Shown here one piece after another: positions 42,593-48,980 of a stretch of 64,000 bases of DNA (position 1 is its first letter; each line of letters starts with the position of its first letter). The DNA comes from an uncultured candidate division Zixibacteria bacterium. Lineage in GTDB: Bacteria > Zixibacteria > MSB-5A5 > UBA10806 > 4484-95. The notes beneath the pieces were generated by a model that saw only the letters and a list, made by a program, of their open reading frames with translations, had not been told where the DNA came from and made no database searches. The stretch spans positions 128,001-192,000 of the forward strand of contig CAXXKA010000001.1 in assembly GCA_963668625.2 (NCBI GenBank), in the 5' to 3' direction. The position numbers were made by a program, and so were the translations under genes.

Positions 42593-44170
42593 ATGAAGAG
42601 GTATAGAGTTTATTTTTTGATGGTACTGGTATTAACAATTATCACCTCGAGTGCTTACCCTATAAATACCAGACAACTGGATAACGGTGTGAAATATATC
42701 GCCAACCGTGTTATCGTGATGACTGATCCTGCATATTCTCATGATGTCGTTGCGGGCAATTTGCTAGCTATGGTTCAAGCGGATGATGATATCGTTAGTG
42801 TCGAGCCTTTTTACGATGGGATACTGAGGAAACAATCGATCAAGCAACTGGCCGACAGGTTATTTATTATCACAACCCGCGAGGATTCCGATTTATTCGC
42901 AGTTATCTCTCGCCTGGAAAACCGGGCTTGTATCCAATCGGCGGAGTTCCAGCCTATTCCCGATCTTTTATACACACCCGATGATCCTTATCTCTATCAA
43001 CAATGGCATTTAGAAAAAGTAGGAGCTTATATCGCCTGGGATTACGTTCGAGGCGAGCAAACCGAAAATGTCGTAATAGCTGTTAACGATGCCGGGATTA
43101 ATTACTACCATCCCGATATAGCGGCCAATATCTGGTACAACGAGAATGAGGATATAAACGGCATTGATGATGATGCTAACGGTTATATTGATGATTACAT
43201 GGGCTGGGATTTCGGCGAGGAAGACAACGACCCGATCGATCATCTCGGCCATGGTACGGGTGTAGCCGCCGCGATTGCCGAGGTTACCGATAACGCCACG
43301 ATGGGTGCCGGATTAGGTTATTCGACCCGACTGATGAATTTGAAGACCATTACCGATAACGGATACCTGGTTGAGGGTTATACCAGCATGTTTTACGCGG
43401 TTGAACAAAATGTGAGTATAATTAACATGTCCTGGGGTATGCCGGTTTATCGTGAATTCGAGCAAGCTATTGTCGATGCTCTCTGGGATGAGGGCGTTTT
43501 GATGATAGCCGCCGGCGGTGAGCGGGATGATCTAACTTATCCGGCTGCTTACAATCATGTTATGGCGGTCTCGGCAACCGATCAGGATGATCATATCGGA
43601 TATTTCGCGCCTTATGGCGAATATATCGATATTTGCGCTCCGGGCGTAGCTATCGGCTTGGCTTATTTCGAGGGTTTTTCTGTTATCACCGGTACCTCAT
43701 TTTCGGCGGGGATGGTTTCCGGGTTGGCCGGCCTGATCAAAGCTTACTATCCCGATTTTACCAACGAGCAGATCTGGCAGATGATTATCGATTCTGCCGA
43801 TCCCATCGATGATATCAATCCGGGTTATGAGGGGCTTATAGGCGCGGGACGGTTAAACGCGGCAAATTGCTTTACCACCGGCATTGAGGAAAACACGCGG
43901 CTACCTGAAAGTATAGCGTTGATTGAAAGCTACCCCAACCCGTTCAACGCCCAAACGCGCATGCGATTTCAGTTGATGAACACTGCCGATGTCGAGTTGA
44001 TTATATACGATATTCTTGGCCGCAAGGTGGAAATCCTGGAGCTAGGCGAGAGGCAAGCCGGCATGCATTCGGTAATCTGGGATGCCAAAGATAAATCATC
44101 AGGAGTGTATTTTGCCAGGTTATACTCCGGTGGGGAATCGGATATAGTGAAAATGGTATTATTGAAATAG
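42593..44170 (+). CDS. S8 subtilisin-like peptidase with T9SS-type CTD
   Basis: Triad motifs AVNDAG, HGTGVA, GTSFSA; C-terminal YPNPFNA...SSGVYF...KMVLLK. Confidence 0.9.
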   Translation: MKRYRVYFLMVLVLTIITSSAYPINTRQLDNGVKYIANRVIVMTDPAYSHDVVAGNLLAMVQADDDIVSVEPFYDGILRKQSIKQLADRLFIITTREDSDLFAVISRLENRACIQSAEFQPIPDLLYTPDDPYLYQQWHLEKVGAYIAWDYVRGEQTENVVIAVNDAGINYYHPDIAANIWYNENEDINGIDDDANGYIDDYMGWDFGEEDNDPIDHLGHGTGVAAAIAEVTDNATMGAGLGYSTRLMNLKTITDNGYLVEGYTSMFYAVEQNVSIINMSWGMPVYREFEQAIVDALWDEGVLMIAAGGERDDLTYPAAYNHVMAVSATDQDDHIGYFAPYGEYIDICAPGVAIGLAYFEGFSVITGTSFSAGMVSGLAGLIKAYYPDFTNEQIWQMIIDSADPIDDINPGYEGLIGAGRLNAANCFTTGIEENTRLPESIALIESYPNPFNAQTRMRFQLMNTADVELIIYDILGRKVEILELGERQAGMHSVIWDAKDKSSGVYFARLYSGGESDIVKMVLLK

Positions 44171-44901: not shown

Positions 44902-45276
44902 ATGAAATGCTTTTTCCAGGGAGTTGTTAGAGACAACAATATCGAAACCCAGTTCAACAGCTTTGTAAGTTTCATCATACCCGAGCTTGGAATCAATTTC
45001 CGAGGCCAGTTTAAAGGCGACTATGAGGAATGCGAGTACGCCAGCCTTCTGGCCCTCCTGGAGTTCATTGAATTAAACAATCATCTCTTCAAAGATAAAC
45101 GAATCGAGATACTTGGCAATAACTACAGCGTAATCAGCCAGGTCAACTCGGTCGAGGAGCCCTCCACGGATTTGGAGCCGTTATGCAGTCTGGCGCAAAG
45201 CTATAAGAAGAAATTCCCGTTTATCCTGGACTGGATTCCTACCGAAGAAAATATGGCTCAGGATCGCTGGGTGTAG
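44902..45276 (+). CDS. Small protein with degenerate RNase HI-like motifs
   Basis: ECEYASLLALLE and IEILGNNYSVISQVN resemble AEYxAL and GDSxLVxxQ; strong AAGGAGG RBS. Confidence 0.6.
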   Translation: MKCFFQGVVRDNNIETQFNSFVSFIIPELGINFRGQFKGDYEECEYASLLALLEFIELNNHLFKDKRIEILGNNYSVISQVNSVEEPSTDLEPLCSLAQSYKKKFPFILDWIPTEENMAQDRWV

Positions 45277-45304
45277 CGTTTAAAATGAAAACCGGAAGCT
45301 TGTT

Positions 45305-45333
45305 TAAGGGTCATTCAATGGCCCTTATTTTTT
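45305..45333 (+). terminator. Intrinsic terminator
   Basis: TAAGGGTCATT-C-AATGGCCCTTA followed by TTTTTT. Confidence 0.75.
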
Positions 45334-45472
45334 GTTTATACTGTTTGACTAAACTCAAATACATGTTATATTTAAGTAGGGTAGAGAACTTAAGCTTCAT
45401 AGAAATGGTTTATTTAATTGGAAACAAAGGAGATGGTACGATAAAAGCATCTTGCTAATCTATTCTGTTGGT

Positions 45473-45645
45473 GTTAGAGCTTCGGTAATGAATTTCTAAC
45501 TGGAGCGGATAGGTTATAGGCTGAACTGAATGCTTGAGGCCAGACCTCGTAAAGGAGATTAATCAGACCTGTAACCGAATTGCCACCATAAGGCAAAGAC
45601 CTTGAATAGGAGTTTGGTAGGCGCCGACAGAGAGTCTGCTCCAGT
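45473..45645 (+). ncRNA. Putative bridge/seek RNA of the IS110 element
   Basis: 5' hairpin, basal stem 45499-509/45635-45, and two internal-loop domains carrying target (AAAGGAGAT) and donor (ATAGGAG, ACCAT) matches. Confidence 0.75.
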
Positions 45646-45670
45646 GATAACCATAGAATGGAGCAAGAAG

Positions 45671-46684
45671 ATGAGGTACTTAGGAGTAGACCTTCACACA
45701 AACAGTTTGACCGTGTGTTACCTGACAGCCGGTGGTCGGGAGAGGATCAAGGAGTATCGGCTAAAGGATCTAAAGGAATTTAAACGAGGATTAAAAAAGA
45801 CGGATTGTGTAGCGGTTGAGGCCACTGGCAACACTCGTTATTTCGTTGATGAGATATCGCATTTGGTCAAGCGAGTTGTTGTCGTCGATCCGAACAAATT
45901 TGAGATAATCAAATCATCAGTCAGTAAGACGGATGAAAACGATGCCAGGAACTTAGCCTATTTTATGAGCAAAGACATGTTGCCGAAAGCCCGATTAAAG
46001 ACGAAAGATAAAGCGCAGATCAGTTCACTTGTTGGGACACGGGACAAGCTGGTCAAGTTACGTACAGCTTTGAAGAATAAAATACACAACATACTCAATC
46101 ATCATGGTATCAAGAGTAAAAAGGAGGCCTACTCCAGCAACAAGAGTTTGGAGCGGGTTCTAAAGATGAATTTTGATGAGGTTGTTTCTGTTGAGCTTGA
46201 GGTATTGGTTGATCAGATTCGCAGTTTGAATGAGGGGATAAAAAAGCTGGACAAACAGATAGAGGATCAGGGTCGCAAGTTGAACGGGCATAAGAACCTG
46301 ACCAGCATCAAAGGAATCGGCAGCAAATCAGCTACAGTGTTGCTTTCGGTAATTGGTGATGTTGCTGATTTTTCGGACAAAGATAAATTGGCCTCATATT
46401 TTGGCGTAGTGCCGCGAGTTTCCAATTCAAACGAGATTCAGCATCATGGTCGGATTACCAAGCGTGGTTCTAAGATTGGTCGGACTACACTGGTGCAGTG
46501 TACGCTTGTTGCCATACGATATAACCATTACTTGAGTAAATATTACAATCGTATAAAAAACCGTCGTGGCAGCGGTAAGGCTATCATTGCCACAGCCAGA
46601 AAATTACTGGGAATAATCTATGACACCTTGAAAAATAATTGGGTGTTTGAAGATTTCCCTAACTTTGTGTTAGCAAACAGATAA
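45671..46684 (+). CDS. IS110-family DEDD transposase/recombinase
   Basis: YLGVDLH, AVEATG, KTDENDA, SIKGIG, ASYFGVVP and A.ARKL motifs; ATG at 45671 follows GGAG. Confidence 0.95.
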   Translation: MRYLGVDLHTNSLTVCYLTAGGRERIKEYRLKDLKEFKRGLKKTDCVAVEATGNTRYFVDEISHLVKRVVVVDPNKFEIIKSSVSKTDENDARNLAYFMSKDMLPKARLKTKDKAQISSLVGTRDKLVKLRTALKNKIHNILNHHGIKSKKEAYSSNKSLERVLKMNFDEVVSVELEVLVDQIRSLNEGIKKLDKQIEDQGRKLNGHKNLTSIKGIGSKSATVLLSVIGDVADFSDKDKLASYFGVVPRVSNSNEIQHHGRITKRGSKIGRTTLVQCTLVAIRYNHYLSKYYNRIKNRRGSGKAIIATARKLLGIIYDTLKNNWVFEDFPNFVLANR

Positions 46685-46721
46685 CTGAAATTTGGAGTAG
46701 ACTTTTATCATAGGAGATGAA

Positions 46722-48980
46722 ATGAAAAAATATCTATTGTTCGCGGTTGCTTTTAGCCTGATGCTTTCAGCATCCGCCATACATGCAAACGAGAATCCCT
46801 CATTGTTGCATGTTTACTTAATGAATAAAACCGATGTTATGAAGCTGGCCGATATGCCTCTGGATATTCCTTATTATACAGAGGATTATGTCGAGGTAGT
46901 TGCTTATAGTGATGATATCGCGGAAATAGCCGCGGCCGGATTGCATTATGATATAGTGCAGGAAGATATGGTTAGTTTCTATCAACAACGCAACCCGGTG
47001 ATTACCACGATGGGCGGATACCTGACCTATAGCGAAGTAGTGGACTCTCTTGATATGCTTCATATGCTTTATCCTGAACTGGTCTCCGAGAAATTTTCGA
47101 TCGGCCAGAGCTGGGAGGAGCGCGATCTGTGGGTGATCAAGGTTTCGGATAATGTCGATACCGATGAGGATGAGCCTGAGATTTTCTACAATGCATTAAT
47201 TCACGCTCGCGAACCTGCAAGTATGGCCTGGCAACTGAATTTCCTTTCCTGGCTTCTGGAAAATTATGGCATAGATGATGATGCTACCGAAATTCTGGAT
47301 GGACGTGAAATCTGGTTCCTGCCCGTTTTTAATCCGGATGGCTACGAATATAACCGTCAGACCAACCCTAACGGCGGCGGCATGTGGCGTAAAAACAGAC
47401 GTTCCGGTGGCGGAGTTGACTTGAACCGTAACTGGGGCTACATGTGGGGCTATGATGATGACGGCTCTTCGCCTTATTCCAGTGATGAAACCTATCGAGG
47501 CCCGGCGGCGTTTTCGGAACCCGAGACTCAAGCTGTCAGAGATTTCATTACCGGCCGCGATTTCAGTTTCATTATAAACGCGCATACTTATGGCAACTGG
47601 TGGTTGTATCCTTACGGCTATGATGATATTTATACTCCCGATCAGTCGATTTTCAGCGCTATCGGCGACTCCGTCGAAACGTTGACCGGTGGCGATTACA
47701 GACCCGGTACCGCCTGGGAATGTTTATACAATACCAATGGTGATGCCAACGACTGGCAGTACGGCGAACTCGGCCTGTTTTGTGCCACCCCCGAAACCGG
47801 CAATTCCTCGGATGGATTTTGGCCGGCGTCGTATCGTATAAATCCACTTAACGCCCAGATGTTACCCGTAGCTATCTATATCGCTCAGATTGCCGGAAAT
47901 GTCGAGACAATCTCGGCGCCGACCGCGCCCGTCTTGAACCCCATCGGCCAGCTCGATACATCATCGTATACCGTAAGTTGGACGCATGAGGATGAGGATA
48001 ATCCGGCTGTGGCTTATGAACTGGTCGAGAAATCGGGATATCTCAGAACCGAAGACGATATCGAATCGGGTGATGGTTTGTGGGAGTTCGATGGTTACGG
48101 AATCAGTACCAGCCGTTATCACTCCTCTAACCATAGTATATTTTCCGGGAATGAGAACTCATACCACGGCAGCGCTATTTTGGCTGATGAGCTGAACGTT
48201 TTAGATGATGACACTCTGTCGTTCTGGGTTTGGTTCGATGTCGAGGAAGATTTCGACTATGGCTATGTTGAAATTTCCACCGATGGCGGGGCTATTTTCA
48301 CACCGATCGAGGGAAATATAACCACTAATTACGATCCTAACGGCTCCAACCGGGGTAATGGTATAACCGGCTCCTCCGCAGGTTGGATCGAGGCCTCGTT
48401 CCCGCTGGATGCTTACGCCGGTATGTCCGTCCAGATCAAATTCAGCTATGTTACCGATAGCTGGATGCTGGAGAGTGGTATATATATAGATGATGTTTAC
48501 CCGATTGAGACTTTCGAAAGCGAGATGGTTCTGGCCTCGGATATTGCAGATAACTTCTACGATATAACAGATCGGGAAAATGGTACTTATTTCTATCAGG
48601 TCCGGGCGAAAGATGCCGAGGATCAATGGTCGGGATTCTCCAATCGCGAGGCCGCTATTGTTGACGCTAACGTATCAATAGATGATAACAATCAGATTCC
48701 GGCCGAATTTAACCTGGCGCAGAATTACCCAAATCCGTTTAATGCCAGCACCGAAATTAGTTTTGCTTTATCGAGCGCCGGTTACATTACTCTCGAGGTT
48801 TACGATATCGCCGGCAGATTGGTAAGAACTCTCCTGAGCAGCGATATGACGGCAGGCGATCATACCGTAATATGGAACGGCTCGAATGATAACGCCGAAT
48901 CGGTTTCTTCCGGCATATATTTCTATAAGCTCACGACCGATCAAAAATCGGAAACCAGGCGGATGACCTTACTCAAGTAA
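46722..48980 (+). CDS. M14 zinc carboxypeptidase (carboxypeptidase T-like) with InhA/MAM-like domain and T9SS-type CTD
   Basis: HAREP, WRKNR, GVDLNRN, FSEPET, HTYG and QNYPNPFN...SGIYFYKL motifs. Confidence 0.92.
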   Translation: MKKYLLFAVAFSLMLSASAIHANENPSLLHVYLMNKTDVMKLADMPLDIPYYTEDYVEVVAYSDDIAEIAAAGLHYDIVQEDMVSFYQQRNPVITTMGGYLTYSEVVDSLDMLHMLYPELVSEKFSIGQSWEERDLWVIKVSDNVDTDEDEPEIFYNALIHAREPASMAWQLNFLSWLLENYGIDDDATEILDGREIWFLPVFNPDGYEYNRQTNPNGGGMWRKNRRSGGGVDLNRNWGYMWGYDDDGSSPYSSDETYRGPAAFSEPETQAVRDFITGRDFSFIINAHTYGNWWLYPYGYDDIYTPDQSIFSAIGDSVETLTGGDYRPGTAWECLYNTNGDANDWQYGELGLFCATPETGNSSDGFWPASYRINPLNAQMLPVAIYIAQIAGNVETISAPTAPVLNPIGQLDTSSYTVSWTHEDEDNPAVAYELVEKSGYLRTEDDIESGDGLWEFDGYGISTSRYHSSNHSIFSGNENSYHGSAILADELNVLDDDTLSFWVWFDVEEDFDYGYVEISTDGGAIFTPIEGNITTNYDPNGSNRGNGITGSSAGWIEASFPLDAYAGMSVQIKFSYVTDSWMLESGIYIDDVYPIETFESEMVLASDIADNFYDITDRENGTYFYQVRAKDAEDQWSGFSNREAAIVDANVSIDDNNQIPAEFNLAQNYPNPFNASTEISFALSSAGYITLEVYDIAGRLVRTLLSSDMTAGDHTVIWNGSNDNAESVSSGIYFYKLTTDQKSETRRMTLLK

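Follow-up and report, generated by a model that had tools for sequence, protein, structure and literature searches.

IS900, an insertion sequence (IS) of the IS110 family from Mycobacterium avium subsp. paratuberculosis, is said to target translation initiation signals, going by the title of Doran et al. from 1997. In this study, we examined an IS110-family element that sits within the Shine-Dalgarno (SD) site of a gene for an M14 carboxypeptidase, splitting this site, in an uncultured candidate division Zixibacteria bacterium. The DNA analyzed, referred to here as the window, is a stretch of 64,000 nucleotides (NCBI GenBank assembly GCA_963668625.2, contig CAXXKA010000001.1, positions 128,001 to 192,000 of the forward strand), and coordinates below count from its first letter. 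The element is very probably an active, recently expanded bridge-recombinase IS of the IS110 family, in which the guide RNA has its target-binding loop programmed for the SD sequence.

As described in PMC8141618, IS900 likewise targets the translation start region, with the motif CATGNNNNNNTCTCCTT in the orientation of the element, which corresponds to AAGGAGA-N6-CATG on the gene strand. The same description gives IS900 no inverted repeats and no target duplication, and places its insertions mostly in non-coding DNA. Its target is recorded as resembling the circle junction (PMC1525189). The two elements differ in orientation: the IS900 transposase lies opposite to the host gene, and the ribosome-binding site (RBS) of the host is said to serve hed, an open reading frame (ORF) of the complementary strand (PMC8141618), whereas here transposase and host gene share one orientation. 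Mycobacteria are the hosts of IS900 and its named kin, while the clade described here spans many phyla; we compared the two by the published description of IS900. Literature searches returned no SD-directed bridge or seek RNA and no precedent beyond IS900; supplements lay outside their coverage, and PMC11208160 Supplementary Data 2, for example, may list a target of AGGAG type.

Each loop of the IS621 RNA is described as a stem, a sense guide, a stem-loop, an antisense guide, and a 2-nt handshake guide to the other partner, with CT in all guides (PMC11208160, PMC11208158). According to a 2026 preprint (10.64898/2026.10.21.760802), many bridge-RNA models deviate from the IS621 structure. IS621 and ISCro4 share with the element studied here the protein family, an RNA upstream of the gene, and two pseudo-symmetric loops, one for the target and one for the donor, that both include the core. 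The protein similarity is nevertheless distant (E ~1e-12). Unlike in IS621, the long-range stem encloses both loops here, donor and target share 5 nt rather than 2, and the natural target is the SD sequence rather than a REP element.

In IS1111-type elements, a long non-coding region lies downstream of the transposase gene; here it lies upstream. Like the element studied here, they have an RNA-guided DEDD transposase (with a seekRNA) and sub-terminal inverted repeats, which are described as present in the IS1111 group and lacking in the IS110 type (PMC11187229). With its sub-terminal repeats and its upstream non-coding region, the clade described here therefore mixes IS1111 and IS110 features.

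An IS110-family element at Shine-Dalgarno sites of its host genome

The element measures 1284 bp, including one AGGAG. Read directly from the sequence, its left junction is ...GGAAACAAAGGAG|ATGGTACGATAAAAGC..., with AGGAG at 45428-45432, and its right junction is ...GACTTTTATCAT AGGAG|ATGAA ATG, where AGGAG occupies 46712-46716 and the ATG at 46722-46724 is the start codon (Table 1). A first-pass annotation of this DNA had claimed that the element splits the SD site and that its right end recreates AGGAG at the same spacing; the window junctions, where AGGAG is restored 5 nt upstream of ATG 46722, and all 11 copies in the genome bear this out. Excision of 45433-46716 in silico yields AAAGGAG, ATGAA, and ATG in direct succession. 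This is the RBS and start of the carboxypeptidase gene that the annotation had expected on removal of the element, in a geometry that homologues show uninterrupted. The downstream ORF (46722-48980, 752 aa) encodes a Peptidase_M14 protein (E 8e-66). The 8-bp sequence AGGAGATG occurs at 45428-45435 and again at 46712-46719; the ATG by which it exceeds AGGAG is a chance match between the host spacer and the element's first three bases. The ends of the element are ATGGTACG... and ...TTTATCAT, and they carry no long terminal inverted repeats, in keeping with the IS110 family.

The 337-aa ORF of the element contains the Pfam domains DEDD_Tnp_IS110 (PF01548, E 5.7e-13) and Transposase_20 (PF02371, E 5.4e-22) and scores 242.7 bits, against a cut-off of 140, with the NCBIfam model NF033542 ("IS110 family RNA-guided transposase"). 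In the PDB, the transposase matches IS621 (E 3.1e-12) and ISCro4 (E 1.1e-12), with the best stretch in the C-terminal half. Its protein family comprises 4768 clusters at E 1e-30 or better, none of which bears a specific IS name. By its protein, ends, core, and guide RNA, the element belongs to the IS110 family; it departs from IS621 in the order of its guides.

The host genome (4.3 Mb, 10 contigs) carries 11 copies of the element, which differ at one internal position and all retain the intact ORF of 337 aa. At the left junction of every copy, host (A/T)AAGGAG is followed by ATGGTACGATAAAAGC, and at the right junction of every copy, ...TTTTATCAT AGGAG is followed by 5-7 host bases and ATG. In 11/11 copies, transposase and downstream host gene share one orientation. 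The host base after AGGAG varies between copies (T in 9/11 and A in 2/11, including the window copy), and the constant repeat is therefore AGGAG, 5 bp. Nine of the 11 copies precede ORFs of at least 116 aa, whose products are M14 and M32 carboxypeptidases, FG-GAP, sortilin/BNR, SnoaL, glyoxalase, and PSCyt1 proteins, and two proteins without a Pfam match.

Among the unoccupied AAGGAG sites in the genome (n = 1552), 280 (18%) have an ATG 5-7 nt downstream, and 233 (15%) have such an ATG followed by at least 80 open codons. The chance of all 11 copies lying at SD-ATG sites is P ~9e-9, and that of at least 9 of 11 preceding a long ORF is P ~2e-6. T at +1 after AGGAG is found in 9/11 copies compared with 48/233 comparable free sites (P ~7e-5). 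An earlier, looser count gave 423 SD-like sites among 1574 AAGGAG sites, compared with 42/1574 for the reverse motif. The enrichment before start codons that the first-pass annotation had proposed to test by mapping the copies is present in this genome (11/11 copies against 280/1552 free sites), and in relatives 53/77 loci are followed by a start codon with an open frame (see below). Copies at non-RBS sites, which would have spoken against its proposal, are absent from the set: each of the 11 has an ATG 5-7 nt after the rebuilt AGGAG. The host genome uses strong AAGGAG SD sites.

In contigs of the run with 99% of the stretch's sampled words, a unitig corresponding to 45427-46716 stands at a depth of 51, compared with ~7 for the flanks. 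The element was not found among 30 relatives searched, five of which hold distant IS110-family genes alone (at most 31% identity). Together, these observations fit a recent gain and burst, and the single base that distinguishes the 11 copies likewise marks the burst as recent.

Homologues of the carboxypeptidase gene show the site in its uninterrupted state. In the genomes of five relatives, three homologues (from two same-genus genomes and one same-family genome) have an uninterrupted AAGGAG 5-6 nt before the start, reading AAAGGAG-ACGTG-ATG, AAGGAG-TTGTA-ATG, and AAGGAG-TCGTTG-ATG; the remaining two have TAGGAG 5 nt before ATG. Metagenome homologues have AAGGAG 5-6 nt before ATG in 9 of the 11 inspected. 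AAAGGAG-ATGAA-ATG is therefore the normal state of the carboxypeptidase gene. A metagenome scan with the carboxypeptidase N-terminus gave nothing above 70% identity, hence no same-species empty site. In contigs of four runs over 45000-47200, the element forms a separate high-depth unitig, with no joint across it and no right-end/left-end joint. The search for an empty allele, which the first-pass annotation had suggested, was thus answered in part: homologues from other species carry the intact SD geometry, and a same-species allele was not found. A 1587-nt contig from a wetland metagenome (run X5, contig record 13) holds a diverged relative of the element, whose ends match 45427-45447 and 46692-46724 and whose flanks are different.

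A structured RNA whose guide-like segments covary with flanks and ends

We collected 80 loci of relatives (52-64% protein identity) from metagenome-assembled genomes (MAGs) of many phyla by a scan of genome contigs with the transposase. The relatives belong to Acidobacteriota, Omnitrophota, Spirochaetota, Nitrospira, Planctomycetota, Alphaproteobacteria, and others. Three multi-copy sets, from an alphaproteobacterium, an Acidobacteriaceae MAG, and a Spirochaetota MAG, have the same anatomy, and in relatives, too, the transposase is in sense to the host gene. The motif CAT[AG]GGAG follows the transposase gene in 77/80 loci. In 53 of these 77, a start codon 3-10 nt farther on opens a frame of at least 50 codons or one that runs off the locus. 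The 24 misses consist of 4 loci without a flank, 4 retargeted loci, about 10 short ORFs, and a few loci with a false match to the end motif.

The left non-coding end folds at -81 kcal/mol (z -4.99 compared with shuffles). This single-sequence minimum-free-energy fold pairs the guides into stems and was set aside in favor of a comparative structure, built from an alignment of 22 diverse left ends. The consensus consists of a 5' hairpin, a long-range stem, an outer stem with an internal loop and hairpin, and a second hairpin module. Over its 37 pairs, 94.8% of cells are paired, and 23/37 pairs show compensatory change on both sides; none of 500 shuffles reached as high, and slid controls gave 30-48%. 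A hidden Markov model of the RNA region matches upstream of the transposase in 75/80 relatives. An Rfam scan of 45300-46800 (E up to 10) returned two chance-level matches alone (osmY and PK-BYV), and no curated family covers the RNA.

Within this structure, two 7-nt guide-like segments stand in near-identical contexts, each 3' of an inner hairpin: GACCUCG-U-AAAGGAG-AU (45551-45559) and GACCUUG-A-AUAGGAG-UU (45606-45614). The first segment reads as the host left flank plus AGGAG, and the second reads as the right end of the element. A guide aimed at the SD sequence, as the first-pass annotation had proposed, is thus present as AAAGGAG in the non-coding left end, and in relatives it covaries with the flank. 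The succession of hairpin, G-N, 7-nt guide, and 2 nt matching the other partner corresponds to the RTG/RDG and handshake guides of IS621 (PMC11208158).

The target guide equals the left flank at positions -3, -2, and -1 before GGAG in 51/62, 60/62, and 62/62 loci, respectively. Where the guide base is not A, the flank follows it in 14/18, 3/3, and 5/5 cases at the same positions. The variants pair guide and flank as follows: ACACGGAG with CACGGAG, AAUGGAG with AATGGAG (locus L081), UAGAGGAG with AGAGGAG (L045 and L030), and AUUAGGAG with TTAGGAG (L053, guide UUAGGAG). The two bases after the target guide equal the first two bases of the element in 61/62 loci (the exception is L065), and AC in this place goes with elements starting ACG... 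in 7/7. The donor guide equals the right end in 68/68 loci, including all 15 G variants (AUGGGAG/CATGGGAG). Host positions +1 and +2 agree weakly with the dinucleotide behind the donor guide (34/78 and 29/78; 170 and 406 of 5000 shuffles were as high), and UU in this place fits the T preference at +1 in the family of the window's element. The covariation supports the view that the SD sequence is the target of an entire lineage of bridge-RNA elements.

In four Acidobacteriaceae MAGs (L069, L075, L077, and L079), the target guide is ACACGGAG instead of UAAAGGAG. The flanks of these loci read CACCACGGAG|element|ACACGGAG..., with no start codon behind them, and the donor end retains CATGGGAG. This subfamily looks like a natural retargeting away from the SD sequence.

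In relatives, the base left of GGAG follows the host at the left junction and the element at the right junction (TGGAG/AGGAG in L081, CGGAG/GGGAG in L069, and AGGAG/GGGAG in an Acidobacteriaceae family), and the exchange is therefore confined to GGAG. The constant repeat is 4 bp across the clade and 5 bp in this genome. The first-pass annotation had taken the 8-bp repeat of the window copy to reflect identity of donor and target rather than a classical duplication; the identity stands, with exchange within GGAG, and the length has to be shortened to 5 bp here and 4 bp clade-wide. Nor does the repeat vary with each insertion as a true target duplication would: AGGAG stays the same from copy to copy, and the base before GGAG goes with the host on one side and with the element on the other.

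The junction of a circular form was modeled by joining the right end through AGGAG to the left end. It contains TAGACT, 17 nt, and TACGAT, a candidate pair of -35-like and -10-like hexamers (8/12 consensus matches); among 49 distinct junctions, 10 have at least 9/12 matches with at least 4 in each hexamer. The pair may be a counterpart of the hexamers that the two ends bring together at the junction in IS621 and ISCro4 (PMC11208160). The 10-bp sub-terminal inverted repeat matches at 9/10 positions here and at a mean of 7.5/10 over 48 distinct junctions, compared with at most 3.5 in other registers. It is kept across families through changes in both arms, and it brackets the 10-nt asymmetric center (AGGAG+ATGGT) of the modeled circle junction.

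Several loci have features of their own. In L025 (~2540-2575), the last 16 bp of the right end are present in a tandem duplicate, and in L052 (~1252-1267), the left flank of the element is CTCATAGGAG, which is similar to a related element's right end; both features may have been left by an insertion into a rebuilt SD site or by imprecise excision. By eye, many relatives (for example, L036, L043, and L061) start ATGG(C/T)ATGA.... At the left junction of these relatives, the host SD, 5 nt, and ATG thus open a mini-ORF of a few codons; the window copy (45428-45447) has ACG there.

Table 1. Features at and around the element in the window
Feature	Position	Strand	Basis or remark
Terminator-like hairpin, upstream of the promoter-like site	45305-45327		Scan
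Host promoter-like site: TTGACT, 16 nt, TATATT, with TG before the second hexamer	45345-45372	+	Consensus scan only, 10/12 matches; insertion point ~55 nt farther downstream
Host half of the split SD site: AAAGGAG, comprising the left target and the first AGGAG copy (45428-45432)	45426-45432	+	(A/T)AAGGAG here in 11/11 copies
Element-specific DNA	45433-46711	+	Limits of identity among 11 copies
Left non-coding end, 238 nt; starts ATGG, then -10-like TACGAT at 45437-45442	45433-45670	+	Sequence, fold
Sub-terminal inverted repeat: left arm ACGATAAAAG, partner CTTTTATCAT	45438-45447, partner 46702-46711	+	9/10 complementary
Core of the bridge-RNA-like structured RNA; long-range stem around two stem/internal-loop/hairpin modules	45502-45642	+	Comparative structure
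Target guide AAAGGAG (left flank and core), then AU (element's first two bases)	45551-45559	+	Covariation
Donor guide AUAGGAG (right end and core), then UU	45606-45614	+	Covariation
Gene of the IS110-family RNA-guided transposase (337 aa), with a GGAG of its own 7 nt upstream of ATG	45671-46684	+	Domain and profile matches
Right end, 32 nt; -35-like TAGACT at 46698-46703; terminal ...ATCAT AGGAG; rebuilt SD at 46712-46716	46685-46716	+	Sequence
Host spacer ATGAA (46717-46721), then M14 carboxypeptidase gene with T9SS sorting domain (46722-48980)	46717-48980	+	ORF and domains

Outside the window, a second IS110-family element of ~1.45 kb is present in the same genome in five identical copies (contigs C1:622956-623924, C4:59228-60196, C5:24615-25583 on the minus strand, C6:580870-581838, and C8:130664-131632). 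Its protein is 28% identical to that of the SD-homing element, and its target is not an SD site, with flanks reading ...CAG|GAAAGTAAC... and ...CATAGCAG|GATTCCT.... One genome thus holds two guide-directed elements with different addresses. Within the window, a Por/T9SS C-terminal sorting domain ends both an S8 subtilase (42593-44170) and the M14 carboxypeptidase (46722-48980).

Proposed strand exchange and the choice of start sites

In the reading that we favor, a circular form carrying right end, AGGAG, and left end in succession would recombine with a host (A/U)AAGGAG site, with strand exchange within GGAG. The exchange may fall on the final AG, whose opposite strand reads CT, the dinucleotide that forms the IS621 core. 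The host would retain AAAGGAG on the left, and the element's ...CAUAGGAG would come to lie at the original distance from the host start codon. The asymmetric guides would fix the orientation, so that the transposase would always read in the direction of the host gene.

Host transcription would cross the element and in this way provide its guide RNA and its transposase, much as IS621 is served by read-through. The excision of IS621 is described as needing transcription from flanking DNA, and an upstream terminator as abolishing it (PMC13626964). A scan found no terminator-like site on the plus strand within the element, and a promoter-like site lies upstream. Insertion in sense at an SD site would guarantee such transcription from outside. 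The host gene would be the last cistron and could be translated from the rebuilt SD site; because the rebuilt site would keep the gene translatable, insertions would cost little.

Several observations weigh against this reading or limit it. The shuffle-based figures for covariation overstate independence because copies and relatives share descent, and the non-A guide variants amount to roughly eight lineages. A guide of 7 nt does not by itself account for the presence of every copy at a true start site, and a second guide for the spacer side could not be demonstrated in the window's element. In both loops the guide occupies the 3' strand, which in IS621 carries the antisense guide; the element therefore departs from IS621 either in the order within the loop or in the way the gene cassette is oriented to the core. 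Read in the frame of IS621, the bound strand would be 5'-CTCCTTT-3', the core would be CT, and the cassette would be reversed; alternatively, the loop strands would be swapped. At 2 of the 11 sites, the downstream ORFs have merely 34 and 39 aa. Two of the 11 sites are operon-internal, and another two of the 11 counted lie just after hairpins that resemble terminators by eye, so a host promoter directly upstream is not general. The first-pass annotation had placed the targets just downstream of promoters; this holds for the window copy (45345-45372) and fails as a general rule. Finally, contigs of the four runs over 45000-47200 contain neither a same-species empty allele nor a circle junction.

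The two short ORFs lie at L005:2801-2902 (copy C10:184848) and L007:2797-2913 (copy C6:142543), and one of them is hydrophobic. They may be small proteins, leader peptides, or decayed genes.

The placement of every copy at a start site could have another source than the guide. It is possible, though in our view doubtful, that the guide reads (A/U)AAGGAG alone and that selection afterwards leaves copies at real start sites, with in-gene insertions being lost and SD insertions surviving through the rebuilt SD site. The window's element has one clear target guide of 7 nt, 82% of AAGGAG sites lack an ATG 5-7 nt downstream and most of these must be coding sequence, and the rebuilt SD site is a plausible reason for neutrality. 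However, the 11 copies differ at one base and the burst is recent, while ~50 lost insertions would be needed for 11 kept if 15-18% of sites were tolerated. The T after AGGAG in 9/11 copies (P ~7e-5) is an extra sequence choice on the right side. In relatives, moreover, the 5' strand of the target loop complements the spacer before ATG better than do non-cognate strands (3.70 compared with 3.11 of 7, P 0.0025).

This last signal also bears on a further and rather unlikely explanation, in which the spacer and the start codon's AU are read by a second guide and the element would thus recognize SD, spacer, and AUG rather than the SD sequence alone. The 5' strand of the target loop begins with a conserved N-A-U in relatives. 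With this AU set opposite the AT of the start codon, the next bases pair with the spacer more than do non-cognate pairs or shifted registers. Taken by 39 families, the pairing has P 0.0005, and the Watson-Crick count peaks at 3.14 at shift 0, compared with at most 2.7 elsewhere. The start codon is ATG, not GTG or TTG, at all 11 of the element's own sites and at most sites of relatives. Yet the effect is small, ~0.6-0.8 pairs of 7, and may partly reflect base composition shared by host and element; a single family has spacers of 5 to 7 nt, a variation that a register fixed from the core cannot span; and the window's element has AC in place of AU and no such spacer match. Registers anchored at the core with linkers of 0-3 gave P 0.04, 0.014, 0.41, and 0.87. 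By longest run, the complementarity of the target-loop 5' strand to the right flank was not significant (5.53 compared with 5.14, P 0.08). In the donor loop, the 5' strand (CACC[A/G]U) was also considered as a second guide and rejected; by eye, it matches the left end over its first 4 nt in the most frequent families and fails on variants.

A classical target-site duplication, in which the protein would recognize AGGAG and make staggered cuts there, with the RNA motifs incidental, is a highly improbable origin of the repeat: a direct repeat of 4-5 bp does stand at every copy and a 4-bp GGAG duplication would be compatible with the sequence alone, but the base left of GGAG is unequal on the two sides (host-derived on the left, element-derived on the right), the right-hand repeat copy matches the element's own donor guide in 68/68 loci, IS900 as an IS110-family member is described as being without target duplication (PMC8141618), and targets like the circle junction are recorded for IS117 and IS900 (PMC1525189).

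The Shine-Dalgarno sequence as the probable address of a bridge-RNA lineage

Compared with IS621, the element described here has its sense guides in the 3' loop strand, in the place of RTG/RDG, and one clear guide per loop. The order of two guides per loop was not recovered: the donor loop gave no convincing second guide, and the target loop gave a weak signal. Of the features that mark the IS900-like group, insertion between SD and start codon is found at 11/11 of the element's own sites and in 53/77 loci of relatives, whereas an antisense transposase is not found. Our results support the view that this is a variant on IS110 bridge-RNA elements in which the address is the SD sequence in sense orientation and the element supplies a replacement SD site itself, with IS900 as the precedent. 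We offer a broader picture tentatively, and its parts need not all hold: a cross-phylum lineage of bridge-RNA IS elements with SD as their address, a second strand reading the spacer together with the start codon's AU, co-oriented insertion behind promoters, supply by read-through, donation of a replacement SD site, and a cassette inverted to the CT core relative to IS621 and IS900.

With these elements, the old observation on IS900 gains a concrete RNA-guided reading, and SD-seeking is not a mycobacterial oddity. The lineage also provides a natural test case in bridge recombination, both for guide pairing versus selection in the choice of sites and for the question of whether the need for read-through transcription influenced the choice of target. 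If the broader picture proves true, the element would be a natural promoter trap and a start-site tagging tool for any SD-using bacterium.

The element could ride on host transcripts and probably leaves the following gene open to translation. In annotation, evidence is needed before a gene that has such an element ahead of its start codon is labeled inactivated. A guide against a sequence that is nearly universal in bacteria could explain both the crossing of phyla and a supply of many safe, transcribed landing sites.

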